From the NCBI GenBank assembly GCA_965223425.1, contig OZ245003.1, positions 704,001 to 768,000 of the forward strand: a stretch of 64,000 bases of DNA. The letters run 5' to 3'. The DNA is from Nitrosopumilus sp. Lineage in GTDB: Archaea > Thermoproteota > Nitrososphaeria > Nitrososphaerales > Nitrosopumilaceae. The notes under the pieces were generated by a model that saw only the letters and a list, made by a program, of their open reading frames with translations, did no database searches and had not been told where the DNA came from. This document shows, piece by piece, positions 23,484 through 56,548 of this stretch (positions are counted from its first letter, which is position 1; each line of letters begins with the position of its first letter). The position numbers were made by a program, and so were the translations under genes.

Positions 23484-23990
23484 CTATTCTTCAAGTGGCA
23501 CAGAAGGAGATTCATTTTTGAGCAGTTTTCTTTTTAGCGGCGTTGCGCATATTGGGCATTCTTTCCCACCGGTGTGATTAGCTTTGCATCCCGGGCAATA
23601 ATGAACCCACTTTCCAACGTCTTTTATTCCTTGAGTCATTATCGGTGAAATTTTCAAACCCAGGTTTTTTGCCACATTTAAAATCGCAAAATCGTCACTG
23701 ATTATCTCCCCTTTCATCTCAATGCATAGTGCAATAATCGAAATGTCTTGTCTTGATAGCTGTGGAAAGTCCCCCGTATCCTTGGATGCTGTTATTGCAG
23801 CGTCTGTTGATTCTTTGTCCGGCTCTCTAATCTTCATCCTATTGGTTTCCAGCAGAGTCCCAAGGGCACCGTAATCTTTCTTTATGTGCCTGATTTCGTC
23901 ATAAACGAGGGATGTGGTGTAGCAGTCATTTGATGATCTAAATGGCACGCCCGCATAAAATGCGCTGGCGTCTAAAATCCTAAAATCCAA
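23484..23990 (-). CDS. Nob1-like PIN-domain endonuclease with zinc ribbon
   Basis: ILDASAF, LSRQD, SDDF, CPGC and CPIC. Confidence 0.85.
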   Translation of the reverse strand: MDFRILDASAFYAGVPFRSSNDCYTTSLVYDEIRHIKKDYGALGTLLETNRMKIREPDKESTDAAITASKDTGDFPQLSRQDISIIALCIEMKGEIISDDFAILNVAKNLGLKISPIMTQGIKDVGKWVHYCPGCKANHTGGKECPICATPLKRKLLKNESPSVPLEE

Positions 23991-24795
23991 GTTTACTCAT
24001 CTGTCTCAGTCCTCGTTTTTTTAATCTTACAAAGACTGCCGGCTTTTTATATTTTTTAATAATTATCGGTTCTTCAAATCCTGCTGATTTAACCACTTGG
24101 GCGTCCATTACAATGTTGCAGTCATGAGAGCATATAATCTCAACTTTTTCATCTGGAACTACAATTGATTCTAGTCTATACACCGGTGCAACAGGAGTGA
24201 TGATCAGAACATCTAAACTTTCATGTAAGATTGGACCTCCCAATGAAAACGAATGTCCTGTAGACCCGCTAGGTGTCGCAATAATCACTCCGTCCATTTT
24301 CTGTTTTACCGTGTCATTTTGAAATTTGATTTCAATTTCTGCAGTCTTGGTCAGGTTTGTTCTACTAATGTAAATCTCATTTAATGCCGGTGGAAATTCT
24401 TTCCCCCCACAGGATGCAATCACTCTGGTTCTTTTGTCTAGGAAGAACTTGTCTTTTAAAATCTGATTAACTGCATTGTCAAATTCCCCAATAGTTATTT
24501 CAGCTAAAATGCCTCTGTTTCCACCTACGTTGATTGTTAAAATCGGTGTTTCATTTTCCAGGTTTCTAAAGACTCGAAGTGTAGTTCCGTCCCCCCCAAG
24601 TGTGATGACTAGATCAAGCTTTATCTTTTTCAGTTCCTCCAAGGCTTCAATTTTCTTTGCACCTTGCACCTCAATTGGTGAAATTGTATATATTGTTGAT
24701 TTTTTTGCCAAAAGCTTTTTCACAACATCTTTTGCAGCTTTTTCTGAGTCTTTTGACCCGACCTTACTTACTACTGCAACTTTTTGGAGTTTCAA
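23980..24795 (-). CDS. nadK: NAD kinase
   Basis: GGDGT, LNE and DGVIIATPSGSTGHSFSLGGP. Confidence 0.93.
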   Translation of the reverse strand: MKLQKVAVVSKVGSKDSEKAAKDVVKKLLAKKSTIYTISPIEVQGAKKIEALEELKKIKLDLVITLGGDGTTLRVFRNLENETPILTINVGGNRGILAEITIGEFDNAVNQILKDKFFLDKRTRVIASCGGKEFPPALNEIYISRTNLTKTAEIEIKFQNDTVKQKMDGVIIATPSGSTGHSFSLGGPILHESLDVLIITPVAPVYRLESIVVPDEKVEIICSHDCNIVMDAQVVKSAGFEEPIIIKKYKKPAVFVRLKKRGLRQMSKLGF

Positions 24796-25210
24796 GCAGT
24801 TCTTCTGAATTCTATTTACTTAAAAATGATATTTTTGCCGTAGTGTCTTTGATTGAAAATCGATCAACTGCCTGCCTACAAAGTGGCAAAAATGAGCGGT
24901 TTTCTACCAAAGACACTACGGTTGGTTCAGCTAAGCGAAATGTAGCTATAACCGGCAATCCGCGATTCTACAGATTCTGGGCGCGTGTGATTCTTTGTAG
25001 TGGAAGGTTTCTTCTCTTGGTAATCTCTACAAAGTACTTCTGGGAAACTGGAATCTGAAAAAAATACATAAATATCAAAACAAAAGCATCAAGTTGTTGA
25101 TTTACGCCTTTCAGTTATCTGCTTTCAAGAAGCCGTCGTCGCTAGCCGTACTGCGCATCTGTCATTCCTGCAGCAATCCTGCCTTCCCTGCCACAATGTT
25201 GCCTGACATC

Positions 25211-25224
25211 GGGGGGGGGGGGGG
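25211..25224 (+). repeat. G14 homopolymer upstream of giant gene 2
   Basis: 14 consecutive G about 60 nt upstream of the TTG start. Confidence 0.9.
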
Positions 25225-25286
25225 TGGAGGAAGGATCAGCAGCAGTAATGGTATTGGGAGAAGGAGAGGACAGGAGAGTCTGACAG

Positions 25287-28200
25287 TTGCAACGACTGAT
25301 AAAACCGCCGTTTCTTGCAGCAGCAACAACAACAGCAATAGCAATGGCGGCACTTGTTCTTCTGATTCCCCTCTGCATCCCCCCTGCAGATGCCGCAACG
25401 GATGCAACGTCTGTTCCGACAGACTGGAGCCTGATACCCTCGGGCCTTGGCGACGGGGACCAGTTCAGGCTGCTTATCACGACGTCAACCAAACGCAACG
25501 CCGCATCTTCTGACATTGCCGTATATGACACGTACATCCAAAACCTCGTAGCATCAGGCCATGCAGACATACAAGAGCACAGCTCGTCATTCAGGGTGGT
25601 GGGCAGTACCAATGCAGTCGATGCGCGCGACCACACCGGCACCACCTATACCGACGATGACAAGGGCCCCCCAATCTACTGGCTAAAGGGCGCAAAGGTG
25701 GCAGATAACTATCAGGACTTTTACGACGGATCATGGGATGAGGAGAGATCCGGGCGAAACGAGCACGGAAACGAATTACTGTTTGGCTCTTCTGATACAG
25801 TGAATGTGTTTACCGGCTCTAATGATGATGGGACAAAACACGGCAACTCCCTTGGCTCCAGCAGTGTGCACGTTGGAGTCCCAAACAATGATGGTGGAGC
25901 TAGACTTAACCCACTCGGCAACGTTGCCATATCTCTGTCATCAAGTGAGACGCATCCGTTTTACGGCATCTCGCCTGTATTTCAGGTGGGAAGCATAAAT
26001 GCCGTCCCGACTGCGAAAATCAGCGCGCCTGACACCGCAGACGAGGGCACAACTGTAACCCTTGACGGGACTAGCTCTAGTGATGATGACGGCACAATAT
26101 CGTCATACGCGTGGAGCGCCAGCGACGCGTCCGTCGCAATAACAAACTCCTCTCAAAAGACTGCATCATTTACTGCGCCCCAGGTCACAGAGGACACTCC
26201 CCTGGTCATCACGCTGAAGGTGACTGACAACGACGGCGACACTGGCTCTGCACAACACACCGTCACCATTACCAATACCGTGACTGATCCCCCCAGGTTC
26301 GTCTCAGCAGAGCTAGACGAGTCAACGGGTATGCTGAAAATCACATTTGACAAGACGATAGACGCATCCGGCGTCGATGCCACAAAGTTCCACATAAGAG
26401 AGTCCGGATCCGTCACGGGAGGCGTGACCCTGTCTGCACCGGAGCTTGACACTGCCGCTACTACTACTGACGGCACCGCGCTCTCATTTACGCTGACTGG
26501 CCCGAACCGCGACGCAGTCATCGCGCTGGATGACCCGCAACTGGAGATAGGGGAGGGCGCCGTGGCCGACGTCAATGGCACCAGGATAACTGCGGCCTTT
26601 GACATATCGACTGCCAGGTTCGCCGAGTCTTTTGCCTTTCCGCTGACTACAGATAATGCGGCCAATAGCATCTCCTTCTCAAACGACGGCCTGAGGATGT
26701 TCCTGGCAGACGCCAGGCCTGTTAACGTACGCCAGTACGCCCTGCCTGCGGCCTTTGACGTGTCAGGCGCCAGCCTTACCCGCTCTGTTATGCTTTCATT
26801 CAGCAATATTGGCCTATCCGGCCTTACCTTCTCAAACGACGGCCTAAAGATGTTTACGGTAGATATTCTAACTGATCAAGTACGCCAGTACGCCCTGCCT
26901 GCGGCATTTGACGTGTCAGGCGCCAGCCTTACCCGCTCTGATACGCTTGTTAGCGCCATGGGTGACCTTGCCTTCTCAAATGACGGCCTAAGTGTGTTTG
27001 TTCTCCAGGCATTCTCTAGTACTGTAACACGTTACGACCTGTCTGCACCATTTAACATGACAGGCGCCAGCAAAGTCGGCTCCCACACCTTCGGTTTATT
27101 GGGCGTGAGTTCGTATGGCCTTACCTTCTCAAATGACGGCCACAGGATGTTCATAACAAGCCAACGTGATAGTGGTGCCTCTCACCATACCGACACCATG
27201 TACCAGTACGACCTGCCTACAGCATTTGACACGACAGGCGCCAGCCTTGTCGGCACCCTTGGCGTCTCCCCGCAGCCGACGGGCTCAAGAAACACCGCCT
27301 TCTCAAATGACGGCCTTGAGATGTTCCTGCTAGATCGAACCAACAGTACCGTACACCGGTACGACCTGAGGCTGCTCTACGACATAGACAGGGTTCTGCC
27401 ACCGGACATCAACGTTGTTCCAGTCGCCTCCTTTGATGACGGGGACACCGTCAAAGTCGGCAATACAAACAAGACATTTGACGAGCTTAGCCGCCCATAT
27501 GGCATCACCACGGTAAAGATAGGCTCCAGTACCTACTCCCTGGTCGCATCATTTGATGATGACGGCGTCCAGATAATCAACATTACCAATCCCGCAAAAC
27601 CCGTCCCGACCTCCTCCTTTGATGACGGGGACACCGTCACAGCAGTCGACGGGACACCCAGGACATTTGACGAGCTTGACAGCGTACGGGACATCACCAC
27701 GGTAAAGATAGGCTCCAGTACCTACGCTTTGGTCGCATCATCCAGTGACGACGGCGTCCAGCTAGTCAACATTACCAATCCCGCAAAACCCGTCCCGACC
27801 TCCTCCTTTGATGACGGGGACACCGTCAAAGTAGGCAGTACAAACAAGACATTTGACAAGCTTGACGGCGCATATGGCATCACCACGGTAAAGATAGGCA
27901 CCAGTACCTACGCTTTGGTCGCATCATTTGATGATGACGGCGTCCAGATAGTCAACATTACGGATCCCGCAAACCCCGTCCCGACCTCCTCCTTTGGTAA
28001 AGGGGACACCGTCAAAGTAGGCAGTACAAACAAGACATTTGACGAGCTTGACGGCGCATTGGGCATTACCGTAGTGGATATGGGCACCAGTACCTACGCC
28101 TTGGTCACAGCATACAATGACAACGGCGTCCAGATAGTCAACATTACGGATCCCGCAAAACCCGTCCCGGCAGTCTCCTTTGATAAAGGGGACACCGTCG

Positions 28201-31200
28201 AAGTAGGCAGTACAGACAAGACATTTGACGAGCTTGGAGGCGCATGGGGCATTACCGTAGTGGATATGGGCACCAGTACCTACGCCTTGGTCGCAGCAAA
28301 CACTGATGACGGCGTCCAGCTAGTCAACATTACCAATCCCGCAAAACCCGTCCCGACCTCCTCCTTTGGTAAAGGGGACACCGTCGAAGTAGACAATACA
28401 GAGAAGACATTTGACGGGCTTGACGGCGTACGGGGCATCACCACAGCAACTATAGGCTCCAATACCTACGCCTTGGTCGCATCATACGCTGATGACGGCG
28501 TCCAGATAATCGACATTACAGATCCCGCAAACCCTTTTCCGTCAATCTCCATTAATAACGGGGACACCGTCAAAGTAGGCAATACAAACAAGACATTTGA
28601 CAAGCTTGGAGGCGCACAGGACATTACCGTAGTGGATATAGGCTCCAATACCTACGCCCTGGTTGCAGCATACGATGACAACGGCGTCCAGATAATGGAA
28701 ATCTCGGCAAGATCTGCTGCAAGCCTGCCCACTGTGGCCCCGACCCTCGTGTCTGTTGAAAGGCACGACCCTGCCACACAAAGCACAAACGATCGCAACC
28801 CGACCTTCAGGGTAACCTTCAGCAAGGCAGTAAACAACGTGGATGCACCAGACTTTGAGACCTTAGGTGATGCCACAGCGACAGTCTCTGCTGTCACCCC
28901 GGTATCTGATACGGTATACCACGTGGAGGTAAACGTGACTGCAGACGGCATAGTCAACCTTGGCATTGATGCAGTACACAACATCCAAGATGCCGCAGGC
29001 AACTCCCTGTCCGGTACTGGGCCTACCGAGACAGACGAGCCATACACCATAGATACAGTTCCCCCAACCCTTGCATCAGTTACAAGGCACAGCCCTGCAG
29101 AGGAGGACACAAGCAACAACATCCTGGTCTTCAGGGCAAACTTCAGCGAGGCAGTCGCCAACGTGGATGAACCAGACTTTGTGATCCTGGGCAACGCCAA
29201 TATGAGCAACTTTGCAGTCACCCCCGTGCCTTCCAGCTCCAACTCCACATACGAAGTACGCGTATTTGTATTAATAGACGGCACGGTCGAACTTGGCATC
29301 AATGCTACGGCAAACGACATCACAGACGCCGCAGGCAACGCCCTGTCCGGCACGGGACCGACGGGGGCCAACGAAACATACACAGTAGATAAAGTTCTGC
29401 CAGCCCTTACATCCGTTGAAAGGCACGACCCTCTCACAGAAAACACAAACGATGACACCCCCACCTTCAGGGTAACCTTCAGCGAGGCAGTGGTTAACGT
29501 GGACCAATCAGATTTTCTGGACACAGGCAGCGCCACAGCGGCAGTCTCCGCTGTCGTCCCGGTGCCCGGCGGTAAAATATACGACGTGGGGGTAACCGTA
29601 ACTGCAAACGGCACAGTCGGCCTTTCCATCTCACTGACAACAGACATTGAGGACGCCGCAGGCAACTTAATGCGCCTTGGGCTGCCTAGCGGGGACAACG
29701 AATTATACAGCGTCTCCCTCCTCCCGCAGGCAGAAAACCGGCCTCCGACAATCACCCTAACCGGCGACAACCCTGCAACTGCAGAAAGGTACGTCACATA
29801 CACAGATGCCGGGGCAGCCTGCGCCGATCCTGACGGCGATGATATAACGCTTACCAACTCCTCTAATGTGGACACGGACACAGTATCTTTGCCGGCATCT
29901 CCTTACCGGTACACCTACTCGTGTACAGACCAACACGGGCTTGCCGCGACAAACAAGACCAGACTCGTCAGTGTGGAGGATACCGTGACACCTGTGATTA
30001 CCCTTGTCGGCCCGGCATCAGTATCGCTGACAGTGGGCGACACATACACGGAAGAAGGGGCAACCTGCACTGACTCTGGCCGTCTGCTTGGTGCTGCCAG
30101 TATCGGCGGCGCTACGGTGGACACGGCTGTCGTCAACGAGTACGATGTGGTGTATGCCTGCTCAGACGGGTACAACAACGCTATTCCGGTAACCAGGACC
30201 GTAACTGTTACAGAACCGACGACAACGCCACCAACGCCAACGCCACCAACGCCAACGCCTCCAACCCCGACTGACGACAGTGGCGCCCCCACCTTCACTG
30301 CAAGAACCGGCCCTGCCACAAACCAGGTGACTGTCACCTTCTCTGAGAACGTCAACAGCACGGCTGACTCCCATACAGCATGGGGCGTGGCAGGAAGCAC
30401 GGTCACCGCAGTCACCGGCCTTGACGGGACTGACGACACCGCAGTAATAACGCTGCAAAGCCCAATCCGGCCGCCTGATGCAACGCCTGCCGTGACATAC
30501 GATGACGATGCGGGGGACATCTCAGATGCTGCAGGCAACAGGATGCTTACCGCCACTGTCACCGCTACTGCGGGACACCCGGCGGACCTTCACATACACC
30601 TGATCGGCGATGCCTTCCTATACCACCCGTACGGGGAACCGTACACCGACGAGGGCGCCCTGTGCCATGACGCAGACGGAAATGACATAACTGACACCGG
30701 CGACTATGAAACCCTGCCGTACCTGAATCGGACGCAGACCATAAACGTCAACCTTCACGCAGATACTGCTCTTAATTTTACCCACCCCACCCAAAACCTT
30801 TACCGCCCCTTTGATCCGCAGGAGGTAACATACAACTGCACCACCCCGCTTGTATCCGTAGAGGACTCCAGGCTGGTAGCCCTGCGCGATGAAACCCCCC
30901 CTGAAATCCACCTAAACGGGCCACGCAACGTGGATCTGGAGTTGGGGGAATCATTTGGGGATCCTGATCCTGCCACGTGCACTGACACTCCTCTTAAATC
31001 CCAGATGGAACGTGTAGGCGGCCTCTTTTATCTGACTGTTCTCAGCTCTTCCCTCCCTGACGGGTACCAAAACACCGCAGGAGAGTACACGATAACCTAC
31101 ACATGTTCGGACTCTAAAGGCAACGACGCAGAGGATACAAGCAGAACGCTTCATGTAGGCACGCCTGACAACACGCCACCCGTGCTTGCAGTCAACCCCG

Positions 31201-34200
31201 GTGTGGTGACCACCCTGGAGAACGGCACGCATACCGTACGGCAGGATGTCGGCTTTGCAGCAGCAGGTGACGGCGGCCTGCAGTCCGCAGTATCCTGCAC
31301 GGACAACAGGGACGATACCCCTGCAATCACCCTTGATCCTGCCACGGTGGACACCTCGTCTGCTGGCACCCACACCGTAACGTACTCCTGTGCTGATGAT
31401 GACGGCAACCCGTCTAATGATATAACAGTCACCTGGGATTTCGGTCCTGCAGCCCCCGTGCTTGCAGTAACGCCTGAAGACACTACAGTCACGCTGGCAC
31501 TCAACGCATCATACGAGATCCCCGCAGCAGCCTGCACAGACCACAAGGACGGCGACATCACCGGCACCGGGATTGTAACTGCCATCTCCTCGCCTGGAGG
31601 CCGGACAGTCGATGCAATAGACACCTCCTCTGAGGGCACCCACGGCATAACGTACTCCTGCACGGACTCTGACGGCAACACCGTAGAGCACAACGTAGCA
31701 GTCACAGTCCGGCCTGCCACAGTTGGAAACACGCCGCCTATCATAGTGCTAAACCCGCCTGAAATCATATTTGTTCCAGTCGGAGGCAGCTTTGAAGATG
31801 CCGATACCGGCGCCACCTGCTCTGATGACCAGGACGGCTCTATAACTGCCCCTGACAAACTCACGGTGGATACTGCCGCACTTGACATCAACGTGCCAGA
31901 CACGTACCAAGTCACCTACACTTGCGAGGATTCTCAAGGCGCCTCTGACACCATATCCAGAACCGTCCACGTGTACGGATTCACCGTAAAGGGGAACATT
32001 GCCGACTTTGCAACTGACATCACCACCTCTGATGAATACGAGGAAGGCACAATCCAAGACATTACAAACATTGAGAATCCATCCACCAGCATAAAATATT
32101 ACGATACAACCAGGCAAGAGATTGCTTCCTTTAACGGAACAACACCCCCCCAGGCAGGAACCTATACCGTAGAGTATACCGTGTCTACCCCAGGATCGTC
32201 CCCGCCCATAACCTACACCATCATAGAGACGGTGACTGCCACCACACCACCGGGTGACACCACACCACCGGGTGACACCACACGCCCCACAATCTCACTT
32301 GTCGGCGACTCTGAGATTACAGTCGAGGAAGGCACTGTCTACGATGATCCCGGAGCCGAGTGCACAGACTTGCAGGATGACTCCCCCGAACTGGTGACAT
32401 CCGGCTCAGTTGACACCTCCGAACCGGGCACCTACACGATAGAGTACACGTGCAAGGACGCTGCAGGCAACGAGTCAGAGACTGTTACCAGGACAGTCAC
32501 CGTACCTGACACCACGCCTCCAACCTTTGCGGTAAACGGCAACACAGGCGACTTTGCGACGTCCCTGGCAGAAGGCCAGACCTACAGGAACGGCAAGATA
32601 CAGAACATTACCGAGACTGGCAGCCCTCCGACTCGCACGGAGATAAGGTACTATAACGGCACCGGCGATGCCGCTGTCACCACTGCCGAAAACGAGATCG
32701 ACTCCATTAACAATACCAGGCCTGCCATAGGACATTACACCATACAGTATACAGTCTCTGACTCGGCCGTTTCGCCAAACAACCACACAATCACAGAGGA
32801 ACTCACCGTGCGCGCACCTGCCACGGTAACCATAGGGGCAATCGTCTCGACTACCGGCTCCATCTCGTCACTTGGCATACCTGCAAATGACACCATACAC
32901 CTGGCAGTAAACGACTTTAACGACGATTACCTTGCGCCAAAGGAGGCCTTGTGGAGGCTTGCAGTATCTACATATGATGACGGGTCTGCCCCCGGGGACG
33001 CCATTGCAGCACTGGAACTGCTTGCAGGCAGCAACATAACCTCCATTGTGGGCCCCCTCACAAGCGATGCGCTGTCTGCAGTAAAGGGCCACGCCCTGTT
33101 TGACAATCCGCCAAGGCTTGTCATAAGCTACGCATCTACTGCGCCCACAGACGATCTCAAACAGAAAGACGACCGCGTCTTTAGGATCGTCCCTGACGAT
33201 TCCAATACAGTCAGGGCATACGTCAGCCTCTTTGAGGCAGACTCTGTTGATTACGTGATTCCGGTGTTCCGCAACGACGCGTGGGGGGTAGCACTGAACC
33301 GGATCCTTGCAGATGAAATTGATGATCATAACAATAACAACAACAACAAAATAACCGTACACGGCGGAATACTGTACAACCCTGACCCAATGTCATTTTC
33401 TGCCAACACAACGCTTGCCCTGCTAAATGACACGCTAAGTCGGGATTCCGTCAGTGAAAAGACCCCCGCAGTGGTGGTGTTCGGATTCAATGAGACCCTT
33501 GACATACTCAACGAGGCTGCAGCCACTGCGAATCTGCCTGCAGCAAAGTGGTACGGCAGCGACGCCGTGGCGCCATCAAAGCTGCTTGAGGGCAACACCC
33601 CACGGGACGAGAATCGCAAGACATTCCTTGAGCGCACCGACTATAACGTGCTCACCCTTGCAATAGACGAAAACGAGAAAAACAAGAGGATAGACCGCTC
33701 TGTGGACAACGCTGACGTGTACTCCTATGCGGCATATGACGCAGTATTCATACTCGGCACTGCCATACACCTCAACGGCGGCCCTGTAGGCAATGTGGTC
33801 AACGGGGGCCTGACTGACGCCATCGCGCAGGTGGCAGACAACACAAACAAACACTATACAGACCCTGCCATGGGCAACACCACGCTCAACGAGTACGGCG
33901 ACCTGCTGCAGGCTGATTACTTTGTCCTCTCCCTTGATGCAGGCAGCGGGACATCCTTTGAGCCAGAATTCAGGTATGATCACTCATCAGGCACCCTTGA
34001 GGGTCTTGTCTTGCTTGGCGGCGGCGGTGGCAGCAGCGGAGACGTCTCTGCCCCCTCAATCCGCACGGGCTTTGATGCAAACCAGTACCCCCTGATATAC
34101 GACAGGGTAAAGTACGACCATGACACGATCAACTCTCCCCACACTGCCACGATACGCGCAGGTAGCGGCGAAAAACTTCTCAGCACCCTCACAGTATACG

Positions 34201-34943
34201 AGAACGGCGGGGCGCAAAACGTCCGACACGTCGACATGTTTGTCGCACACAGCGGCAGGACAATACACAACGACGGCACGGAAACCCACGTTACCTACGA
34301 TTCGGGCAGCGTCCGTATAACTGATCCGCACGGCCTGATTGCCAGCGCCACGGTGGAGGCATCTGCCATTGATGCCACAAAGGCGCAGTTTGAGTTTGCC
34401 ATAACCTTTGCCAAGAAGGTTCCGCTCTCTGACGTGCTGTACCGCCTGTGGGACACCAGCAGAAACGCGCTTTACATCCACCTTGAGGACGCACTTGTGG
34501 TGTCTGAGGGAAGGAAAGGCGGCAGTAGCAGCGGAGGCGGAGGCGGAGGCGGCAGCAGTAGCAGCAGCAGTGCTGCCACCACAACCGCTGGCGGCAGCGG
34601 CAACGGCACAACCACAACAACAACCACCGCCGCCGCTGGCAACGGCACCGCAGCTGACACTGCAGACAAACAGCAACAACCACAACAACCCCGACAGGGC
34701 TTTACCGCAGAACAGCTTGCCACCCTAAAGCAGTGGGGCGGATTTGCGTCCCAGTCCGCATCTGACTCGCAGCTTTTAGCCCAGTTCGGAATAGAGGGCA
34801 CCAGCATCCCCCCATACTTTAAGCAGACAGCAAAGTGGTTCCTCGATGCAGATGACGGCGGCGGTGACGGCGGCAGCCTGACTGCGCAGGAGTTTGTCGC
34901 AGCGCTGTCGTACCTTGGGCAGCGCGGCCTGCTGCTAAACTGA
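25287..34943 (+). CDS. Giant modular cell-surface protein 2 (signal peptide, putative lectin-like domain, PKD, beta-propeller, 7 LVIVD-like repeats, Ig-like repeats, LivJ/ANF-receptor-like domain, C-terminal motif)
   Basis: 3218-aa open frame; paralogue of 7986-17699 with a closely similar signal peptide and C-terminal region. Confidence 0.9.
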   Translation: MQRLIKPPFLAAATTTAIAMAALVLLIPLCIPPADAATDATSVPTDWSLIPSGLGDGDQFRLLITTSTKRNAASSDIAVYDTYIQNLVASGHADIQEHSSSFRVVGSTNAVDARDHTGTTYTDDDKGPPIYWLKGAKVADNYQDFYDGSWDEERSGRNEHGNELLFGSSDTVNVFTGSNDDGTKHGNSLGSSSVHVGVPNNDGGARLNPLGNVAISLSSSETHPFYGISPVFQVGSINAVPTAKISAPDTADEGTTVTLDGTSSSDDDGTISSYAWSASDASVAITNSSQKTASFTAPQVTEDTPLVITLKVTDNDGDTGSAQHTVTITNTVTDPPRFVSAELDESTGMLKITFDKTIDASGVDATKFHIRESGSVTGGVTLSAPELDTAATTTDGTALSFTLTGPNRDAVIALDDPQLEIGEGAVADVNGTRITAAFDISTARFAESFAFPLTTDNAANSISFSNDGLRMFLADARPVNVRQYALPAAFDVSGASLTRSVMLSFSNIGLSGLTFSNDGLKMFTVDILTDQVRQYALPAAFDVSGASLTRSDTLVSAMGDLAFSNDGLSVFVLQAFSSTVTRYDLSAPFNMTGASKVGSHTFGLLGVSSYGLTFSNDGHRMFITSQRDSGASHHTDTMYQYDLPTAFDTTGASLVGTLGVSPQPTGSRNTAFSNDGLEMFLLDRTNSTVHRYDLRLLYDIDRVLPPDINVVPVASFDDGDTVKVGNTNKTFDELSRPYGITTVKIGSSTYSLVASFDDDGVQIINITNPAKPVPTSSFDDGDTVTAVDGTPRTFDELDSVRDITTVKIGSSTYALVASSSDDGVQLVNITNPAKPVPTSSFDDGDTVKVGSTNKTFDKLDGAYGITTVKIGTSTYALVASFDDDGVQIVNITDPANPVPTSSFGKGDTVKVGSTNKTFDELDGALGITVVDMGTSTYALVTAYNDNGVQIVNITDPAKPVPAVSFDKGDTVEVGSTDKTFDELGGAWGITVVDMGTSTYALVAANTDDGVQLVNITNPAKPVPTSSFGKGDTVEVDNTEKTFDGLDGVRGITTATIGSNTYALVASYADDGVQIIDITDPANPFPSISINNGDTVKVGNTNKTFDKLGGAQDITVVDIGSNTYALVAAYDDNGVQIMEISARSAASLPTVAPTLVSVERHDPATQSTNDRNPTFRVTFSKAVNNVDAPDFETLGDATATVSAVTPVSDTVYHVEVNVTADGIVNLGIDAVHNIQDAAGNSLSGTGPTETDEPYTIDTVPPTLASVTRHSPAEEDTSNNILVFRANFSEAVANVDEPDFVILGNANMSNFAVTPVPSSSNSTYEVRVFVLIDGTVELGINATANDITDAAGNALSGTGPTGANETYTVDKVLPALTSVERHDPLTENTNDDTPTFRVTFSEAVVNVDQSDFLDTGSATAAVSAVVPVPGGKIYDVGVTVTANGTVGLSISLTTDIEDAAGNLMRLGLPSGDNELYSVSLLPQAENRPPTITLTGDNPATAERYVTYTDAGAACADPDGDDITLTNSSNVDTDTVSLPASPYRYTYSCTDQHGLAATNKTRLVSVEDTVTPVITLVGPASVSLTVGDTYTEEGATCTDSGRLLGAASIGGATVDTAVVNEYDVVYACSDGYNNAIPVTRTVTVTEPTTTPPTPTPPTPTPPTPTDDSGAPTFTARTGPATNQVTVTFSENVNSTADSHTAWGVAGSTVTAVTGLDGTDDTAVITLQSPIRPPDATPAVTYDDDAGDISDAAGNRMLTATVTATAGHPADLHIHLIGDAFLYHPYGEPYTDEGALCHDADGNDITDTGDYETLPYLNRTQTINVNLHADTALNFTHPTQNLYRPFDPQEVTYNCTTPLVSVEDSRLVALRDETPPEIHLNGPRNVDLELGESFGDPDPATCTDTPLKSQMERVGGLFYLTVLSSSLPDGYQNTAGEYTITYTCSDSKGNDAEDTSRTLHVGTPDNTPPVLAVNPGVVTTLENGTHTVRQDVGFAAAGDGGLQSAVSCTDNRDDTPAITLDPATVDTSSAGTHTVTYSCADDDGNPSNDITVTWDFGPAAPVLAVTPEDTTVTLALNASYEIPAAACTDHKDGDITGTGIVTAISSPGGRTVDAIDTSSEGTHGITYSCTDSDGNTVEHNVAVTVRPATVGNTPPIIVLNPPEIIFVPVGGSFEDADTGATCSDDQDGSITAPDKLTVDTAALDINVPDTYQVTYTCEDSQGASDTISRTVHVYGFTVKGNIADFATDITTSDEYEEGTIQDITNIENPSTSIKYYDTTRQEIASFNGTTPPQAGTYTVEYTVSTPGSSPPITYTIIETVTATTPPGDTTPPGDTTRPTISLVGDSEITVEEGTVYDDPGAECTDLQDDSPELVTSGSVDTSEPGTYTIEYTCKDAAGNESETVTRTVTVPDTTPPTFAVNGNTGDFATSLAEGQTYRNGKIQNITETGSPPTRTEIRYYNGTGDAAVTTAENEIDSINNTRPAIGHYTIQYTVSDSAVSPNNHTITEELTVRAPATVTIGAIVSTTGSISSLGIPANDTIHLAVNDFNDDYLAPKEALWRLAVSTYDDGSAPGDAIAALELLAGSNITSIVGPLTSDALSAVKGHALFDNPPRLVISYASTAPTDDLKQKDDRVFRIVPDDSNTVRAYVSLFEADSVDYVIPVFRNDAWGVALNRILADEIDDHNNNNNNKITVHGGILYNPDPMSFSANTTLALLNDTLSRDSVSEKTPAVVVFGFNETLDILNEAAATANLPAAKWYGSDAVAPSKLLEGNTPRDENRKTFLERTDYNVLTLAIDENEKNKRIDRSVDNADVYSYAAYDAVFILGTAIHLNGGPVGNVVNGGLTDAIAQVADNTNKHYTDPAMGNTTLNEYGDLLQADYFVLSLDAGSGTSFEPEFRYDHSSGTLEGLVLLGGGGGSSGDVSAPSIRTGFDANQYPLIYDRVKYDHDTINSPHTATIRAGSGEKLLSTLTVYENGGAQNVRHVDMFVAHSGRTIHNDGTETHVTYDSGSVRITDPHGLIASATVEASAIDATKAQFEFAITFAKKVPLSDVLYRLWDTSRNALYIHLEDALVVSEGRKGGSSSGGGGGGGSSSSSSAATTTAGGSGNGTTTTTTTAAAGNGTAADTADKQQQPQQPRQGFTAEQLATLKQWGGFASQSASDSQLLAQFGIEGTSIPPYFKQTAKWFLDADDGGGDGGSLTAQEFVAALSYLGQRGLLLN
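27414..28710 (+). repeat. Seven ~186-bp intragenic LVIVD-like repeats
   Basis: GVQ(I/L)(I/V)(N/D)IT(N/D)PA(K/N)P six times plus a terminal GVQIMEIS. Confidence 0.9.
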
Positions 34944-34996
34944 GAAGACGCCAAAAGGCGCCACCTGCCCGTCAAAGACTGACGGCTTGCCGCAGA

Positions 34997-35190
34997 TCAC
35001 CGGGAACGCGGCCAGGATCCGCATTTATCTGACACGCAAGGTGTTATCAAACCCCCGCGGTCCACGGTTCTGATCCTGCAATCCGGATTGCGGCACATCA
35101 TCATCCCATATGCGCTGTTTTCCCTGGCCGTTCCAAACAGCAATGTTTTTTTCAAGGTCTTTGGCCGCAGTACTCCCGATGCTTTGCAGG
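34997..35190 (-). pseudogene. Possible TnpB-like C-terminal remnant
   Basis: MMMCRNPDCRIRTVDR resembles the CxxxxC...DRD end of IS200/IS605 TnpB; degenerate. Confidence 0.3.
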
Positions 35191-35448
35191 CTGCCAAGAG
35201 GAGAGACTTTCCGCTGCAGAACCACACACGCCCAGAATCTGCAGGATCGAATCACTGGTTACAGTTCAGAGGAGAACCTGGTACTTTTGTGAAGACTTTC
35301 TCCAGCTATGAAATGAAATGTGCCCTAACTAAGGAACCACTTCTCATGTGCAGAACCAAACCGCTGATCTGTTCTCAGATTTGAGGCACATTTCGCTTAG
35401 TTGTTGGTTGGAAAAACAATTAATTATGCAAACTGATTCATACAAATT

Positions 35449-36294
35449 ATGAGTTACGCCCATCCAGAAGTTTTAGTAGATACTGACTGGGTATCACAAA
35501 ATCCTCCCAACGAACATAGGAAATTAGTTGAGGTTGACTATGATCCTGTAAACGGATATCAAAAAGGCCACATTAATGGCGCCAGTCTTATCTGGTGGAA
35601 ACGTGACATCAATGATCCAGTTACACGAGATATTATTGGTAAAAAACAATTTGAAGCATTAATGTCAAAAAACGGAATTACTTCAGACAGCGAGGTCATT
35701 CTTTATGGTGATTTTAACAACTGGTTTGCAGCATTTGTTTTCTGGGTTTTCAAATATTATGGACATGAAAACCTAAAGATTATGAACGGTGGAAGAAAAA
35801 AATGGGAGTTAGAAAGTAAGGACTACACTACTGATGAACCACAAACTGCTTCAACAACATACAACGCACAACCTCCCGACGAGGGATTACGTGCTTATCT
35901 GTTTGATGTTAGTAGAGCATTAGGAAAAGAAGACACTGTAATGGTTGATGTAAGATCTCCTGCTGAATTTTCTGGCGAAATTACTGCTCCTCCAGAATAC
36001 CCGATGGAGCATGCACAAAGAGGCGGACACATTCCTAACGCAAACAACGTTCCATGGGCAACTGCAGTAAATGATGCTGATGGAACATTCAAAGCAGTTG
36101 AAGAATTAAAACAAAACTATGAACCAAAAGGTGTAACTCCGGACAAAGATGTAATCTGTTACTGTAGAATTGGAGAAAGATCATCACACAGCTGGTTTGT
36201 TTTAAAATATCTATTGGGATACTCCAAAGTTCGAAACTATGACGGTTCTTGGACTGAATGGGGAAACATGATAGGAAATCCCGTGGAAAAATAA
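35449..36294 (+). CDS. Thiosulfate sulfurtransferase (tandem rhodanese)
   Basis: GHINGA, DVRSPAEF, GHIP, YCRIGERSS and YDGSWTEW. Confidence 0.93.
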   Translation: MSYAHPEVLVDTDWVSQNPPNEHRKLVEVDYDPVNGYQKGHINGASLIWWKRDINDPVTRDIIGKKQFEALMSKNGITSDSEVILYGDFNNWFAAFVFWVFKYYGHENLKIMNGGRKKWELESKDYTTDEPQTASTTYNAQPPDEGLRAYLFDVSRALGKEDTVMVDVRSPAEFSGEITAPPEYPMEHAQRGGHIPNANNVPWATAVNDADGTFKAVEELKQNYEPKGVTPDKDVICYCRIGERSSHSWFVLKYLLGYSKVRNYDGSWTEWGNMIGNPVEK

Positions 36295-51089: not shown

Positions 51090-51337
51090 CATTCTGGCCT
51101 CTTCAGCTAAGCGAAATGTAAACAGAATATTCCTGACTATGGGCGTCTGCAAGAAATAGTGCCGGGAATCGACGTTACATCTTAAATTCGTGACTAAATT
51201 ATGATTGGCGACAAATTGTTGGTTCTCTAGGCAAGCCTCGTAATTTGTGCCTAAACTGAGAATGGTTCTGTTGCATCTTAGTGACCTAATCACAAAATAC
51301 GGATCTTCTCTGAATCAAATTTTATGCCTGATTCCTG

Positions 51338-51676
51338 TCAAGCAATGTCATATTTTGACCAACCAAAGACATCTTTTACAGTTTTTAATTTAATCTCAAT
51401 TTTGTTTTGTTTTTTAATCCGTTCAACCTCATTTATGGAATCCTTACTAAATTCAAAGGCTACTATAATTCCACTGGTTTTTCTGTCTCTTTCTATGGCA
51501 GTCTTGAACTTGTCAATCTCAGGCCGTCCTACCTTATGCTTCCATCTTTTGACCTGAACAGGAATAGTTCTAAGATCTGTCCATCCATCAATACCCAAGT
51601 CTCCAGTTTTTTTGGGATTAACTATGCCTTGCATTTTTTCCACTATGACAAGACGTGCAAAATCATGCGGATCCAT
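51338..51676 (-). pseudogene. Mrr-like restriction endonuclease domain fragment
   Basis: GDLGIDG...PVQVKRW...VGRPEIDKF. Confidence 0.7.
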
Positions 51677-52056
51677 TTTTGCTAGACATGAGAGTAAGTT
51701 TGGTGATACACCACCTTAAAAAATTAAAAGCATTGGGCCTCTTACAAGTAACAGATAAAAAAATTGTAAGAAAAGGTAACGACCATAAACATTTTAAAAT
51801 AATTCCAAACATATTTGTGACTCTCAATAAAATCGAAGAGAATAAAGAAAAAAGACTTGAGAAAATTTTCAAAAACACAATAAAATTCCGTGTTTTAATA
51901 GCCTCCTTTGCCTTTGCGTCAATTTATCATGAGTTTTTCAGCATCAAAACATCCGAAACGAACACATTGGCGATTCCTCTAACCATTCTGCTTATTGGTT
52001 TTATTATTCACACCATAATTTATTCTCTTCCAGGAAAAAGGAAGGAGCGCCAGTAA
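51655..52056 (+). pseudogene. Winged-HTH regulator with C-terminal TM helices, N-truncated
   Basis: SLVIHHLKKLKALGLL recognition helix followed by hydrophobic segments. Confidence 0.55.
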
Positions 52057-52809
52057 GCTAAGATACAAGAAAATCAGTCCGATAATTGTGATGTTGAGCG
52101 TAACTTCTTTTATCGGATCCATCATTTTGTGGTAGCTGCCAAAATAAACTAGTATACCACCTAAAAAAAGGAGTGTGGCCAACAGCGCTGTAAGGATTAT
52201 CTTGGGCTTGTTAAAGAGATAAGGAATGAAACGGCTCTTTTCCTGGTTGCCTCGCTTACGCGTTCCGTCATCTGCATCGCCCTTTGCTCTCAGCCAGGAA
52301 AAAGGAAGGAGCGCCAGTAAGCTAAGATACAAGAAAATCAGTCCGGTAATTGTGATGTTGAGCGTAACTTCTTTTATCGGATCCATCATTTTGTGGTAGC
52401 TGCCAAAATAAACTAGTATACCACCTAAAAAAAGGAGTGTGGCCAACAGCGCTGTAAGGATTATCTTGGGCTTGTTAAAGAGATAAGGAATGAAACGGCT
52501 CTTTTCCTGGTTGCCTCGCTTACGCGTTCCGTCATCTGCATCGCCCTTTGCTCTCAGCCAGGAAAAAGGAAGGAGCGCCAGTAAGCTAAGATACAAGAAA
52601 ATCAGTCCGGTAATTGTGATGTTGAGCGTTAATCCGTCTATCGGGTTCAGCAACATACGATGTCCTCCAAAAAGAGCAAACCCCCCTCCTAAAAAAAGAA
52701 GTGTGGCCAACAGCACTGTAAAGATTATCTTGGGCTTATTAAAAAAAATAAAGAAGTGGGCGGCTAGTGCCATTCCGCCACATACAAGCCCCACCACCAG
52801 ACCGGCCAA
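51979..52809 (-). CDS. Membrane protein with 88-aa tandem repeats
   Basis: Two-TM unit repeated about three times; start uncertain. Confidence 0.5.
   Translation of the reverse strand: MAGLVVGLVCGGMALAAHFFIFFNKPKIIFTVLLATLLFLGGGFALFGGHRMLLNPIDGLTLNITITGLIFLYLSLLALLPFSWLRAKGDADDGTRKRGNQEKSRFIPYLFNKPKIILTALLATLLFLGGILVYFGSYHKMMDPIKEVTLNITITGLIFLYLSLLALLPFSWLRAKGDADDGTRKRGNQEKSRFIPYLFNKPKIILTALLATLLFLGGILVYFGSYHKMMDPIKEVTLNITIIGLIFLYLSLLALLPFSWKRINYGVNNKTNKQNG
52030..52745. repeat. 264-bp tandem repeat, about 2.7 copies
   Basis: ccaggaaaaaggaaggagcgccag at 52030, 52294 and 52558. Confidence 0.92.
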
Positions 52810-53507
52810 GTGTATGCCAGAACTTCGGGGTTAGGCTCGCCGGGAGAGTGGTGCTCGCTATGATACCACTCTTCGCCGCGCTCAGCTACTATCGATTGAT
52901 AACGGAATGAGTCGGTTGTACAATTATAGAGAGTTCTTGGATCGTGATAGTCATCTTCATAATTATATGATGCATAGAAAGGAACTAGATGGTAACTGCT
53001 GGGGATTGCATTTCTTGCTGCAGTCTCAGTTGGCCATGGACCAGATGTAGTTGTTGATGGTTGTGGGTGCGGGTTTGAACTGGATCCACCACAAACATCT
53101 TCTGCAGATGCAAATTGGACTCCTAACGATTCTGCAACGTCACCTCCTCCTTGTTTGCCTTCTTTGATGGATTCTCTAAATTTCTCAAGCCCTTCAGAAT
53201 CTTCTTCAGCAACATACATCCTTTGATTTGGATTATCGTGTATGCGCTGAATCATGTTATTTTGAGCTGTTAGAAACTGTGTGGTGATATTTAGTGTTTC
53301 ATTACTCACACCGTTTATTTTAGCCGCTTCTATGTCCATTGTGCCAATTTTTTGGTCATTTATTTCGACATAAGATTGAACTTCTTTCAATGCACGGTCT
53401 ATCTTTTCTGCGGAGGGTGTTTCTGTTGCGATTGTCACCGTAGTTGGGATTGCAATAGACACAACCAATAGGAAAAACAGACCTGTTTTGACGGTATTCG
53501 TAATCAT
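52764..53507 (-). CDS. Secreted protein of unknown function with Trp-rich C-terminus
   Basis: Signal peptide; ends EPNPEVLAYTWPVWWWGLYVAEWH; AT-rich TATA-like sequence upstream. Confidence 0.75.
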   Translation of the reverse strand: MITNTVKTGLFFLLVVSIAIPTTVTIATETPSAEKIDRALKEVQSYVEINDQKIGTMDIEAAKINGVSNETLNITTQFLTAQNNMIQRIHDNPNQRMYVAEEDSEGLEKFRESIKEGKQGGGDVAESLGVQFASAEDVCGGSSSNPHPQPSTTTSGPWPTETAARNAIPSSYHLVPFYASYNYEDDYHDPRTLYNCTTDSFRYQSIVAERGEEWYHSEHHSPGEPNPEVLAYTWPVWWWGLYVAEWH

Positions 53508-54030
53508 TAAAATTGCTTACGTTTAGTATATTAATAAAAAGTATTTCAATTCAAATTGAGCTGATCCCTATATTCAGTCTTCCCAGAAGTACTTCGTAGA
53601 GATTACCAAGAGGAGAAACTTTCTACTATAAAGAATCGCACGCACCCATAATCAGTAGATGAAAATGTACTAGCCGGCAGACGGCTGTTCTAGCCAAATC
53701 CCCCTGCCAGGAACCACATCAGCAGAAAATTTTTCCATCAGCTCGAACATTATCAGCAGAGGAATAACGGCAACATCACGCCGCCCTCCATTGCATCTCC
53801 TGGACCTTGCAGCCGATATTACCCACAAATTATACATTACAAGTGCCATAAAGAACAGAAATATTCTGATGACTGCGTTCTGGCTTGTGGCTTTGGGCCT
53901 TGATCTCTCTGCGTCCCGGTACCCCGTTTCTATGCCCCACCTCTTTTTGTACTCCTCTGGAATTCCTTCTGTCTCAAAGAGCGGGTTACGGCAGTCAAGG
54001 TTGGTGGCATACGCCAAATATCTGTCCGTA

Positions 54031-55168
54031 GTTAGCACATTAAATAATTGAACATTTTCACAGGCAGGATCTCCTTTCTGGCAAACAGCTTGCGTACTGA
54101 CTGCTCCATCCCACCTGGCGTGCCAAACACTTTTGCAGACAGTACCCGCTTTATCACCCTCCACTGCATCTCAATGGGATTAAGCTCCGGCGTGTACGGC
54201 AGCAGGTACTCCAGAACTATCTCGCCGTTGTATCTTTCCAGAAACTCCTTTACCTTTTTGGATTTGTGATATGACGCATTGTCTACAAACAGCAGCACCT
54301 TGCCGAATCTTTTGTGAACCCGTTCCAAAAAGTTGCAAAAGCTGTCGCTGTCTGGCTTTTCATAAAACATAAAGTAAAATGCGTTTGCCGCCAAAGCTCC
54401 AAAGATGTATCTTCTTTCGCGTGACAAAACAGAGGGGGATGTGGCGCGCTTGCCGCGCCTTCTCCACCCGTAGCCGGGCCTGTTTGATGCCTTTTGAATC
54501 GAGGATGCATCGCCGGCCAGTACGGTGTATCCCTGCGCCGACTTTTCTGCAACGAGTTTTTTTGCCCGCTCCTGAAACTCTTTTTGCTTTCTTTTTGAGG
54601 CTGATCTTGGGTTTTTTGGACGCGCCTTGCTCCACGAAAAGCCCATCTCCCTGATCAGCTGCAGCGCGCCTGTTTTGCTGTACTGCACGCCGAACTTTTT
54701 CTTGATGTGCAGCCTTACCAGGTTGGAGTCCCACAGGCTGCTCTCAAAGCCGCATGACTCCGGCCCCGCATCCAGGTCCGCTGCAAGCTGTCTTGCCTGC
54801 GGCCCGCCTATCAGGTGCTTTCGTCCCCTGCCGCTGCGCTCGAACCTTGCGCGCATTCCCTCGTCCTGTGCGCGGTTGAGCCATGCAGATATGGTGGACT
54901 TGGGCCTTCCCAGCATCCTTCCAATCCTGTCTAGCGGCACGCCGTCCTTGCGCTGCATGTACGCAAGCAGCCTGTCGCGCCTTCTGGGATCGGTCTCTTT
55001 TTTGTATGCCCTTTTGAGGTCTGCAACGCTGGTGTTTGGCAGAAATTTTGCCCCCCTTGCAACCTGTCTCTTTTTTTGTTTGTACATGCAGTGTGTGCGG
55101 TATGGCCTGTCTTGGATCTTTTGGCCAAAAATAATTGTCAAAATGGTTCAGGTTTTTTATGTACTTAC
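54031..55168 (-). mobile_element. IS630-family element
   Basis: Imperfect ~28-bp TIRs with TA duplicated at 54029-54030 and 55169-55170. Confidence 0.85.
54032..55141 (-). CDS. IS630-family transposase
   Basis: GDAS, VDNASYH and PYTPELNPIE; uninterrupted frame. Confidence 0.9.
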   Translation of the reverse strand: MTIIFGQKIQDRPYRTHCMYKQKKRQVARGAKFLPNTSVADLKRAYKKETDPRRRDRLLAYMQRKDGVPLDRIGRMLGRPKSTISAWLNRAQDEGMRARFERSGRGRKHLIGGPQARQLAADLDAGPESCGFESSLWDSNLVRLHIKKKFGVQYSKTGALQLIREMGFSWSKARPKNPRSASKRKQKEFQERAKKLVAEKSAQGYTVLAGDASSIQKASNRPGYGWRRRGKRATSPSVLSRERRYIFGALAANAFYFMFYEKPDSDSFCNFLERVHKRFGKVLLFVDNASYHKSKKVKEFLERYNGEIVLEYLLPYTPELNPIEMQWRVIKRVLSAKVFGTPGGMEQSVRKLFARKEILPVKMFNYLMC

Positions 55169-56148: not shown

Positions 56149-56548
56149 TGTCATAGCGCGGTATGAGGTGCATATCGATTGCTATGTCCAGTCCTTTTTT
56201 TGGAACCCTGCCCAGTCTTTTGAGGGTTTCAAGATGCCTTGCTATCTGGCCCTCAAGCGTGTGCTGGATTGCATCCTGCTCAATTCCCTTGATTGCCGAT
56301 GCAATCCACCTGTCAGACGGGGCATTGCAACCTTTGCGCCCTTGCGCCTTTGCGCATCCGCCTACAGAGGAATCCATGGTGGCAGCCTTTAGCATGCCGC
56401 AGTTCAGATCATCTGGTCCAAACGTTGCGTTGTACCTGTCTGATGTGTTGGCGCATGCAAGCATGTTTTTGGCGCCGTCTGCAACATCTTGATATATGCG
56501 TGGATTGTTTAACAGTTCGCGGCCCTGTCTGGTTTTTTGTATTGACAA
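56149..56548 (-). pseudogene. ISH3-family transposase N-terminal half
   Basis: LNNPRIYQDV...DIAIDMHLIPRYD, cut at the TIR at 56148; begins next to the CAG end at 56633. Confidence 0.75.

Follow-up and report, generated by a model that had tools for sequence, protein, structure and literature searches.

A probable transposable cassette with ISH3-like ends and no transposase carries a giant surface-protein gene in a Nitrosopumilus genome

Mobile insertion cassettes (MICs) consist of passenger genes that lie between repeats related to an insertion sequence (IS), encode no transposase and are activated by the cognate enzyme (PMC4337579). In the parts of that source drawn on here, the transcription activator-like effector (TALE) gene MICs of Xanthomonas are bounded by inverted repeats of the Tn3-family element TnXax1, and MIC231 of Bacillus cereus is cited as mobilised in trans (PMC4337579). 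In Acinetobacter, two copies of a MITE (miniature inverted-repeat transposable element) flank class 1 integrons, and MITE-297 copies flank 76 kb of DNA in an arrangement termed 'composite transposon-like' (excerpts of PMC6382973). For a thaumarchaeon of the soil group, a fosmid with a possible composite transposon was reported, in which amoAB lies between two IS copies (excerpts of PMC3379541). Here we describe a unit of 10,476 bp, named L2, which carries one giant surface-protein gene between ISH3-like ends in Nitrosopumilus sp. GCA_965223425.1 (G000). It was found in a stretch of 64,000 nucleotides, the window, which corresponds to positions 704001-768000 of contig OZ245003.1 (C1); L2 occupies 24928-35403 of the window, or C1:728928-739403. 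The same contig carries an archaeal amoA, so that the host is an ammonia-oxidising archaeon, as had been assumed when the unit was first noticed.

We read L2 as a non-autonomous transposable cassette bounded by inverted repeats, for which the terms mobile insertion cassette and MITE-bounded composite transposon are equally apt, and assign this reading a probability of roughly 0.8. The core of the original prediction, a transposase-less unit with ISH3-type ends that had moved as a whole, was upheld by the duplication at L2, by the absence of the unit from all 22 congeners examined at this position and by the empty sites with a single TTTAA that correspond to a sister unit, L1. In the following, IS-A is our name for an ISH3-like IS family of ~1,250 bp with the ends CAGCTAAGCGAAATGT and 5-bp duplications. 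MITE-A denotes short non-autonomous elements with IS-A ends, and MITE-B a second, different MITE family.

Both junctions of L2 were read directly in the sequence. The left junction (24922-24943) reads ...ACGG TTGGTT / CAGCTAAGCGAAATGT... and the right junction (35388-35409) reads ...ACATTTCGCTTAGTTG / TTGGTT GGAA.... The two ends form a 16-nt inverted repeat, matched at 15 of 16 positions with a G/A difference at position 3 as the lone mismatch, and the 6-bp direct repeat TTGGTT abuts both outer ends, in agreement with what had been claimed for this locus. When up to two mismatches were allowed, the 16-mer end occurred at four sites in the window (24928 and 51104 on the plus strand, 35403 and 56633 on the minus strand). 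In shuffled windows the mean was 0.11 occurrences, and none of 100 shuffles reached four. Apart from the 1/16 mismatch, the ends of L2 were identical to the ends of IS-A copies and MITEs.

The layout of the unit is given in Table 1. The right end is a MITE by the usual features: it is short, has no open reading frame (ORF), carries the inverted repeats of a known IS and belongs to a family of many copies. It lacks a duplication of its own (inner flank TTCTC, outer flank TTGGT), and therefore the TTGGTT duplication belongs to the outer pair of ends. The proposal of two paired MITE-sized ISH3 relics was thus correct for the complete ~100-bp MITE on the right but not for the left end, where only a stub of 16-20 nt is present. 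Likewise, the sub-terminal inverted homology noted earlier is real (arms 24963-24994 and 35218-35249, 32 nt, 88% complementary; 58 nt at 81% by BLAST), but it is not part of the ends and represents the second family, MITE-B. At the right end the junction between MITE-A and MITE-B' is identical in all three sister units, and the segment 34950-35405 was 89% identical to C1:547499-547959 and 88% identical to C1:985700-986157. The GC content rises from 0.39 outside to 0.51-0.62 inside L2. Among the 100 genome matches listed for the ISH3 model NF033541 none fell inside C1:728928-739403, the scans of the giant ORF gave only surface and binding domains, and the other ORFs listed inside L2, not scanned for domains, are antisense or lie within MITEs. 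L2 encodes no transposase, as had been stated.

Table 1. Coordinates of L2, its components, the flanking genes and related units (window positions unless C1 is given; TIR, terminal inverted repeat)
Feature	Position	Strand	Details
nadK (NAD kinase), left flanking core gene	23980..24795	-	PF20143, PF01513
Left target-site duplication TTGGTT	24922..24927	.	last two bases repeat the start of the conserved TTGGAAAAAC of empty sites
Left IS-A TIR CAGCTAAGCGAAATGT, stub only	24928..24947	+	alignment with sister loci; rest of their MITE missing here
MITE-B, 5'-truncated	24948..25050	+	full family ~140 bp, TIR CAGTCTTCCCAGAAGTAC
Conserved leader of the giant-gene family	25054..25286	+	82-94% identical at 9 loci in G000
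Giant cargo gene, 3,218 aa	25287..34943	+	ORF and domain scans
3' non-coding region common to sister units	34944..35193	+	sequence comparison
MITE-B', inverted, more diverged copy	35194..35299	-	inverted-repeat and BLAST comparison
Complete IS-A-family MITE (type 4), ~100 bp	35303..35403	-	outer end CAACTAAGCGAAATGT; inner end degenerate, CAGCTA--TGAAATG
Right target-site duplication TTGGTT	35404..35409	.	direct reading
Rhodanese-domain gene, right flanking core gene	35449..36294	+	PF00581
Another cargo unit in the window, IS-A-family ends	51104-56633 (51099..56638 with duplications)	.	5,530 bp, CTCTT on both sides
L1, sister unit with paralogous giant gene	C1:535292-547957	.	12,666 bp, outer duplication TTTAA
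L3, sister unit	C1:972440-986160	.	full-length but frameshifted IS-A on the left; no duplication

The genes on either side of L2 were recognised by their Pfam matches as the divergent neighbours nadK and rhodanese that had been named in the original prediction. Orthologues of nadK with 83-93% amino acid identity were present in 59 of 60 sampled congeners. The nadK-rhodanese neighbourhood was examined in 22 congeners, namely 20 of the 60, picked for close identity or long contigs, and two that were added later. None of the 22 carried the giant-gene unit between the two genes, which was the check on relatives that had been proposed, and in 18 of them the genes were only 84-95 bp apart. The spacer in these 18 has the form ...ATATTTTTG-(5-7 variable nt)-TTGGAAAAACAATTAAG. 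An unrelated GC-rich spacer of ~180-240 bp was found in three congeners (G002, G018, G409), and a different insert in the remaining one, G051. In G000 the right flank reads TTGGTT-GGAAAAACAATTAAT, and the conserved TTGGAAAAAC begins with the final TT of the duplication, which recurs at the left end. We concluded that all 10,476 bp entered the ~90-bp spacer between nadK and rhodanese in a single piece, duplicating TTGGTT. Both junctions were bridged by contigs from two samples of two studies; one of these samples was identical to the window, and the other showed 4 substitutions and 3 gaps in a 1.65-kb left-junction contig. The stretch from nadK to the left duplication also holds a near-perfect palindrome of 84 bp (24838-24921, arms of 29 nt, 86% complementary), which occurs once in the genome, is missing from this position in all 22 congeners and shows no obvious duplication.

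L2 has sister copies at other sites of the genome. Three collinear copies, L1, L2 and L3, share the order MITE-A / MITE-B / leader / giant gene / MITE-B' / MITE-A. L1 and L3 were collinear at 91.9% identity over 12.5 kb and L2 was collinear with both at 77-91%; the internal junctions between MITE-A and MITE-B were alike across the copies. L1 has two complete MITEs of different subtypes, neither with a duplication of its own, and the outer pair of ends is flanked by TTTAA. The genes that flank L1 were adjacent in all five congeners tested, and TTTAA occurs once in each of these five empty sites, whose sequence is GGTTTAAAATTAAAT (...TTGGTTTAAAATTAAAT...). An exact duplication together with matching empty sites points to transposition of the whole unit via its outer ends, and the pattern at L1 reads as the classical signature of a 12.7-kb unit transposing through its outermost ends. 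By these comparisons the same giant-gene module has evidently moved repeatedly, to different sites.

The ends were then followed through the genome. With at most one mismatch, the 14-nt end occurred at 65 sites in G000 and at none when a reversed control was used. The copies comprise five full-length elements of ~1,249 bp together with IS-interrupted ones, MITEs of 87-120 bp in four subtypes, solitary ends and a few long pairs. Exact 5-bp duplications were often found at solitary MITEs and IS-A copies (TGTTT, TTAAA, AATTT, AATTC, CATGC, AAGTT), and one IS-A copy had a 6-bp duplication, ATTAAA. Among 1,748 combinations of a plus end with a minus end, 12 showed an exact 5-bp match of the flanks. 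Nine of these were correctly oriented pairs less than 13 kb apart, and the other three, more than 100 kb apart, correspond to chance level; the genome-wide comparison that had been suggested, of paired ends with matched duplications, came out in favour of the predicted units. Exact 6-bp flank matches occurred twice, both times at local pairs, one of which is L2. The motif TGGTT stood in or next to the duplication at three of 12 duplicated sites (GGTTGGTT at L2, TTTGGTTTAA at L1 and TATGGTTAAA at C1:1545835), and it may represent a weak target preference of IS-A-family insertions.

Transposase fragments in the window and in the 1,249-bp copies matched the NCBIfam model NF033541 (ISH3), and Pfam matched none of the three in-window fragments. 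No intact IS-A transposase gene was present in G000, as every tblastn match with an intact relative was split or interrupted. One-base indels were found at reference positions 927 and 1004 in all six IS-A copies and at 797 in five of the six. These copies (C1:449435, 972440, 1854828, 2375021, 2472457 and 692950) were 95-98% alike and ~83% identical to the intact element of a congener, G018. Their shared frameshifts indicate that they multiplied, or were homogenised, after inactivation, apparently with no enzyme of their own. The intact element of G018, 1,255 bp long and sharing these ends, is flanked by a CCGTA duplication and contains an ORF of 380 aa. Intact copies of 1,247-1,249 bp with open frames of 380-392 aa and 5-bp duplications were also present in G409 and in G086, which belongs to another genus. 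The search for an intact transposase with these ends was therefore successful in G018, G086 and G409 but not in the genome under study. Megablast of the IS-A of G000 against the copies of G086 and G409 gave no match at E 1e-20. The exact 14-mer end was found in nine of 401 sampled genomes of the family, belonging to three genera; besides G000 these are G018, G017, G346, G409, G413, G086, G105 and G150.

For the 380-aa protein of G018 the best model was NF033541 (E 1.2e-33, 116.6 bits, positions 11-298 of 298), at a score below the curated cut-off of 225; Pfam DDE_Tnp_1 was matched at E 4.8e-4. The ISH3 family is described as having a length of 1,225-1,500 bp, mostly conserved termini CRGT, direct repeats of 4-5 bp and no YREK motif (excerpts of PMC2266710). 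IS-A is similar in its length of 1,247-1,255 bp, its 5-bp duplications and its DDE transposase with NF033541 as best model, and it differs in its termini (CAGC, where three of four positions fit) and in the score below cut-off (PMC2266710, in part). On sequence grounds we regard the IS-A transposase as a probable distant branch of ISH3. The assignment of the ends to ISH3, made earlier, agrees with size, repeats and best model and is less firm for the score and the termini. G000 contains two further ISH3-type elements, IS-X (1,305 bp, ends CAGTAGTTGGGATTGTAC, 7-8 copies, open frames >400 aa) and IS-Y (~1,371 bp, ends CAGTAGTTCCCAGATGTAG, ~19 copies, open frames >420 aa). Their termini are CAGT, and only CAG is common with the IS-A ends. 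MITE-B, with its TIR resembling the IS-Y ends, is present in >10 copies in G000, and one solitary copy has an AAGAT duplication.

Compared with the systems described above, L2 has what characterises a mobile insertion cassette: IS-A-type inverted repeats around one ORF of 3,218 aa, no transposase found, a duplication and empty sites. Mobilisation would be in trans. In its logic the closest parallel is the TALE-gene cassettes of Xanthomonas. These likewise have 5-bp duplications as proof of transposition, sizes of 3-19 kb and a transposase acting in trans, and their cargo is a repeat-rich host-interaction gene family in several diverged copies (PMC4337579, in part). In contrast to the account of those cassettes in the same excerpts, L2 is archaeal and its ends are ISH3-like (IS4-related DDE), not Tn3 or IS231; each of its ends is, or once was, an entire MITE, and a second MITE family is nested within; and one gene of ~10 kb with foreign codon usage constitutes the cargo, with no cognate intact transposase left in the genome (PMC4337579). 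The Acinetobacter structures resemble L2 in that two non-autonomous MITEs form the outer ends of a cargo segment. According to the excerpts used, they differ in being bacterial and mostly plasmid-borne, with resistance or mercury modules and other MITE families; in L2 the MITEs differ in subtype, and of one only the terminal repeat is left (PMC6382973).

Composite transposons such as Tn5 and Tn10 also have inverted IS-derived ends that mobilise the DNA between them, with a duplication flanking the whole unit (excerpts of PMC2266710 and PMC10969869). Unlike these, L2 has a functional IS at neither end, and in L3 one end is a full-length IS-A that is defective (PMC2266710, PMC10969869). A composite transposon in the strict sense has two complete IS copies, at least one of them functional; the ends of L2 are a 16-20-nt stub and a 100-bp MITE. 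The amoAB fosmid is similar in that thaumarchaeal genes lie between two related IS-derived ends and were proposed to move together. Its two IS copies are full and come from an uncharacterised family, the region between them is syntenic with other genomes, and no duplication or empty site is reported in the part of the source available to us (PMC3379541). For the L2 family, unlike the amoAB case as given there, transposition is documented by duplications and empty sites, as judged from the sequence comparisons above (PMC3379541).

For the cassette reading we propose that an IS-A-type DDE transposase would have bound to the outermost 16-nt end on either side, excised or copied the unit, and integrated it at a cut staggered by 5-6 bp. 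The transposase was probably supplied in trans by an IS-A copy that has since decayed or been lost; alternatively the helper could have been one of the ~27 intact ISH3-type IS-X and IS-Y copies. The cargo, a giant Ig-like/PKD gene of foreign composition, would bring its own promoter and leader, and the leader would drive expression wherever the cargo lands. With a cargo equipped in this way, the vehicle would multiply and relocate surface-protein genes that are ready to be expressed.

Several points weigh against this account. There is no cognate intact transposase in G000, and the intact IS-X and IS-Y share only CAG with the L2 ends. Transposition itself was not observed, and the populations sampled gave no contig of an empty site or an excision product: among contigs from four runs, in which rare variants are lost and which are therefore silent on polymorphism, no joint skipped 24928-35403 and no piece spanned the whole stretch. 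The first four bases of TTGGTT fall in the 5-7-nt stretch that varies between species and only the last TT is traceable, so a single TTGGTT is not demonstrable in relatives. Furthermore, the duplication of L2 is 6 bp long as against 5 bp in nine other local pairs, with one other pair having 6, and L3 has no target-site duplication at all. The divergence between the sister copies (dS, synonymous substitutions per site, 0.10-0.33) makes the transposition events old. Finally, 16 of 24 adjacent end pairs lack a duplication; recombination among copies must therefore be common and might, in principle, also give rise to structures of this kind.

The last point leads to the main rival, in which a solitary MITE-A produced the TTGGTT duplication and the giant module was copied in later by homologous recombination, through gene conversion or a double crossover within flanking MITEs. 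The many pairs without duplications are what would be expected if copies recombine often, and MITE-A copies are indeed numerous, many of them solitary and with their own 5-bp duplications. One MITE-A with its own CATGC duplication lies upstream of another giant gene (C1:2500592-2500691), so MITEs also land near such genes independently. This route would however need a resident MITE at three sites (L1, L2 and the 5.5-kb unit in Table 1), and the first structure would still need another origin. The left end of L2 keeps 16-20 nt of MITE-A, which is too little for homologous exchange unless the rest was deleted later, and L1, with two complete MITEs of different subtypes that each retain both ends, is as predicted by transposition through outer ends. 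Copying-in needs more steps than transposition and is hard to reconcile with the left stub; we consider it unlikely, while regarding it as the alternative to be taken most seriously.

A second possibility is that the inner pair of MITE-B copies, with IS-Y-like ends, was the real vehicle and that the IS-A ends arrived later as unrelated neighbours. In L1, L2 and L3 the giant gene lies between inverted MITE-B copies, and their TIR CAGTCTTCCCAGAAGTAC resembles the end CAGTAGTTCCCAGATGTAG of IS-Y, whose ~19 copies have open frames >420 aa. But the duplications abut the IS-A ends and not those of MITE-B, the flanks of the MITE-B pair of L1 do not match (GGGTC vs TCTC..), the boundaries of the empty sites in relatives coincide exactly with the IS-A ends, and the left MITE-B of L2 has no outer TIR. 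As no duplication flanks the MITE-B pair, we rejected it as the vehicle, and consider this explanation improbable. The least probable of all is that two independent insertions of IS-A ends around a resident giant gene, or a segmental duplication, produced the structure without transposition of a unit: IS-A ends do occur upstream of other giant genes without a downstream partner (C1:2196661-2196756, 2500592-2500691 and 1030824), but the gene was not resident (nothing like it in 22 congeners, 18 of them with the ~90-bp spacer), identical 6-mers abut the two outermost ends, and sister copies with different duplications at different sites are not expected from segmental duplication.

Other structures with these ends were recorded in the same genome. 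At a fourth locus of the giant-gene family (C1:2189955-2196756) only the left MITE-A and MITE-B are kept; the ORF is shorter, with 2,109 codons, and an IS-Y copy lies ~600 bp past its end. In the window, the unit 51104-56633 has a MITE-A-type end on one side and an IS-A end on the other. Its cargo comprises a gene for an Mrr-like nuclease, an ArsR-like gene, two genes for membrane or secreted proteins and nested IS debris, the latter consisting of the N-terminal fragment of an IS-A gene and a different ISH3-type gene that an IS630 element has disrupted. The end at 56618-56633 directly abuts this N-terminal fragment of an ISH3-type transposase, as had been noticed before. The split gene (53670-56059, profile positions 2-228 and 227-296) is interrupted by an intact-looking IS630-family element at 54032-55141 (188 bits). 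The site of this unit was contiguous, that is empty, in four of five congeners, with a single CTCTT in G007 and G009, CTCAT in G059 and CTTTT in G069. At C1:792900-794483, two MITEs without duplications of their own surround an IS6-like gene in a structure of 1,584 bp flanked by TCTAA.

Unrelated inserts were found in both spacers in other species. In the fifth congener, G048, the place of the 5.5-kb unit is taken by ~3.8 kb of different DNA (G048:C2:897902-901684), and the 1.15-kb insert of G051 between nadK and rhodanese (L023 855-2005) is bounded by ~100-bp palindromic repeats. The two spacers seem to be insertion hot spots.

Two candidates from G086 were not accepted as cargo units. A 2,993-bp pair with an ACATA duplication turned out to be an IS-A interrupted by an IS66-family element. 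A 2,608-bp unit (L053, G086:C1:1452900-1455780, positions 126-2733) combines a 74-bp MITE-like end with a Fic/DOC gene and an intact IS-A and is flanked by TTGAC. This unit could be a derivative that bears cargo, but its history is ambiguous, as another TTGAC lies next to the inner end of the 74-bp MITE, and it was not counted as support.

The secreted giant protein of L2 begins with a signal-peptide-like N-terminus and contains one PKD domain, seven Bact_surface_Ig-like domains and one ANF_receptor/periplasmic-binding-type domain (Pfam and NCBIfam), which fits the single 3,218-aa surface protein that had been named as the cargo. The GC content at third codon positions (GC3) was 0.61 in the giant gene vs 0.28 in the rhodanese gene and 0.32 in nadK. 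G000 contains at least 11 very long ORFs of 1,484-7,841 codons with a GC content of 0.55-0.57, at a chromosome GC of 0.41; three of these ORFs are the ones inside the IS-A-bounded units L1, L2 and L3. A second contig of the genome, C2 (123 kb), has a GC of 0.469 vs 0.412 for the chromosome. Another giant gene in the window (7983-17699, 3,238 codons, GC 0.568), 7.6 kb upstream of L2, shares only the last ~60 nt of the leader, and no inverted ends were found around it. The giant ORFs of L1, L2 and L3 are all intact. Between them dS was 0.10 (L1-L3) and 0.31-0.33 (to L2), with a ratio of non-synonymous to synonymous rates (dN/dS) of 0.59-0.71; by this measure the giant genes stayed open while evolving fast. 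Residues ~1-200 of the L2 protein (window 25287-25900), for which there is no Pfam family, are 40-56% identical to the N-termini of many giant metagenome proteins on contigs of up to 8.6 Mb, two of which are named by their sources as bacterial metagenome-assembled genomes (Acidimicrobiales, Saccharibacteria). These matches and the GC3 of 0.61 hint at a foreign, possibly bacterial, origin of the cargo. In five congeners the last 980 aa of the protein gave only domain-level matches (25-51%) and no orthologue.

The leader of L2 contains a predicted A/T-rich, TATA-like box at ~25064-25076 and a poly-G tract at 25211-25224. The length of this tract differs among seven paralogous leaders (11, 11, 13, 13, 14, 14 and 15 nt), the others being sited at C1:535674, 973838, 1030978, 2196365, 2227839 and 2500304. 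An upstream ORF of 11 codons (25248-25283) is in frame with the giant ORF and ends 3 nt before its TTG start, and between paralogues it shows only in-frame indels. Together, the poly-G tract and the upstream ORF suggest slippage-prone regulation and translational coupling. Neither the leader nor MITE-B had a match at E<=1e-5 in the 60 sampled congeners, and in three further congeners (G409, G410, G413) and two genomes of other genera (G086, G105) the leader search gave only matches to the nadK/rhodanese flanks and one 52-nt match. The idea that such units spread giant genes in the lineage thus holds within G000, with three to four copies, but was not supported outside it, where none of these genomes had the conserved leader.

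In the titles and abstracts searched, a search that did not include the main review of archaeal IS diversity, no archaeal cassette of this kind was described. A 2026 survey of archaeal IS elements discusses ISH3 expansion in Sulfolobaceae; in the portion of its text available, 'passenger' is absent and 'cargo' occurs twice, only in the reference list (PMC13343696). That such a structure had not been described in thaumarchaea, as originally supposed, is true of the titles and abstracts searched, with the qualification that a composite transposon around amoAB was suggested before (PMC3379541, in part). The type of vehicle is known from bacteria; the archaeal version and its cargo appear to be new.

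A much broader scenario, to which we give only a small chance, would see in these units a dedicated vehicle with which symbiotic ammonia-oxidising archaea spread genes. Bounded twice by MITEs, with IS-A ends on the outside and the IS-Y-like MITE-B on the inside, the cassettes would capture giant adhesin genes of foreign composition, whose N-terminal domain also occurs in giant proteins on contigs labelled bacterial by their sources. The genes would be taken up together with their conserved leader and its slippage-prone poly-G switch, multiplied in the genome and passed between co-resident archaeal genera that have this IS family in common. If true, it would be an archaeal counterpart of the Xanthomonas TALE cassettes and a route for cross-domain exchange of surface proteins inside a host microbiome.

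For the cassette itself, the findings provide sequence-level proof that a single-gene cargo of 10-13 kb was moved at least twice in an archaeon by MITE-derived ends without a transposase, because target duplications and exact empty sites in sister species are both at hand. The defined 16-nt ends and a candidate 380-aa transposase are now available for an archaeal transposition assay. With 2.6 Mb, G000 exceeds in size all of the ~100 congeners searched (1-2.8 Mb) except one, and the cassette is one way to explain why at least 11 high-GC genes for giant surface proteins are present in it. The case also shows that even when every local copy of an IS family is dead, the family can have left its mark on the content of a genome.

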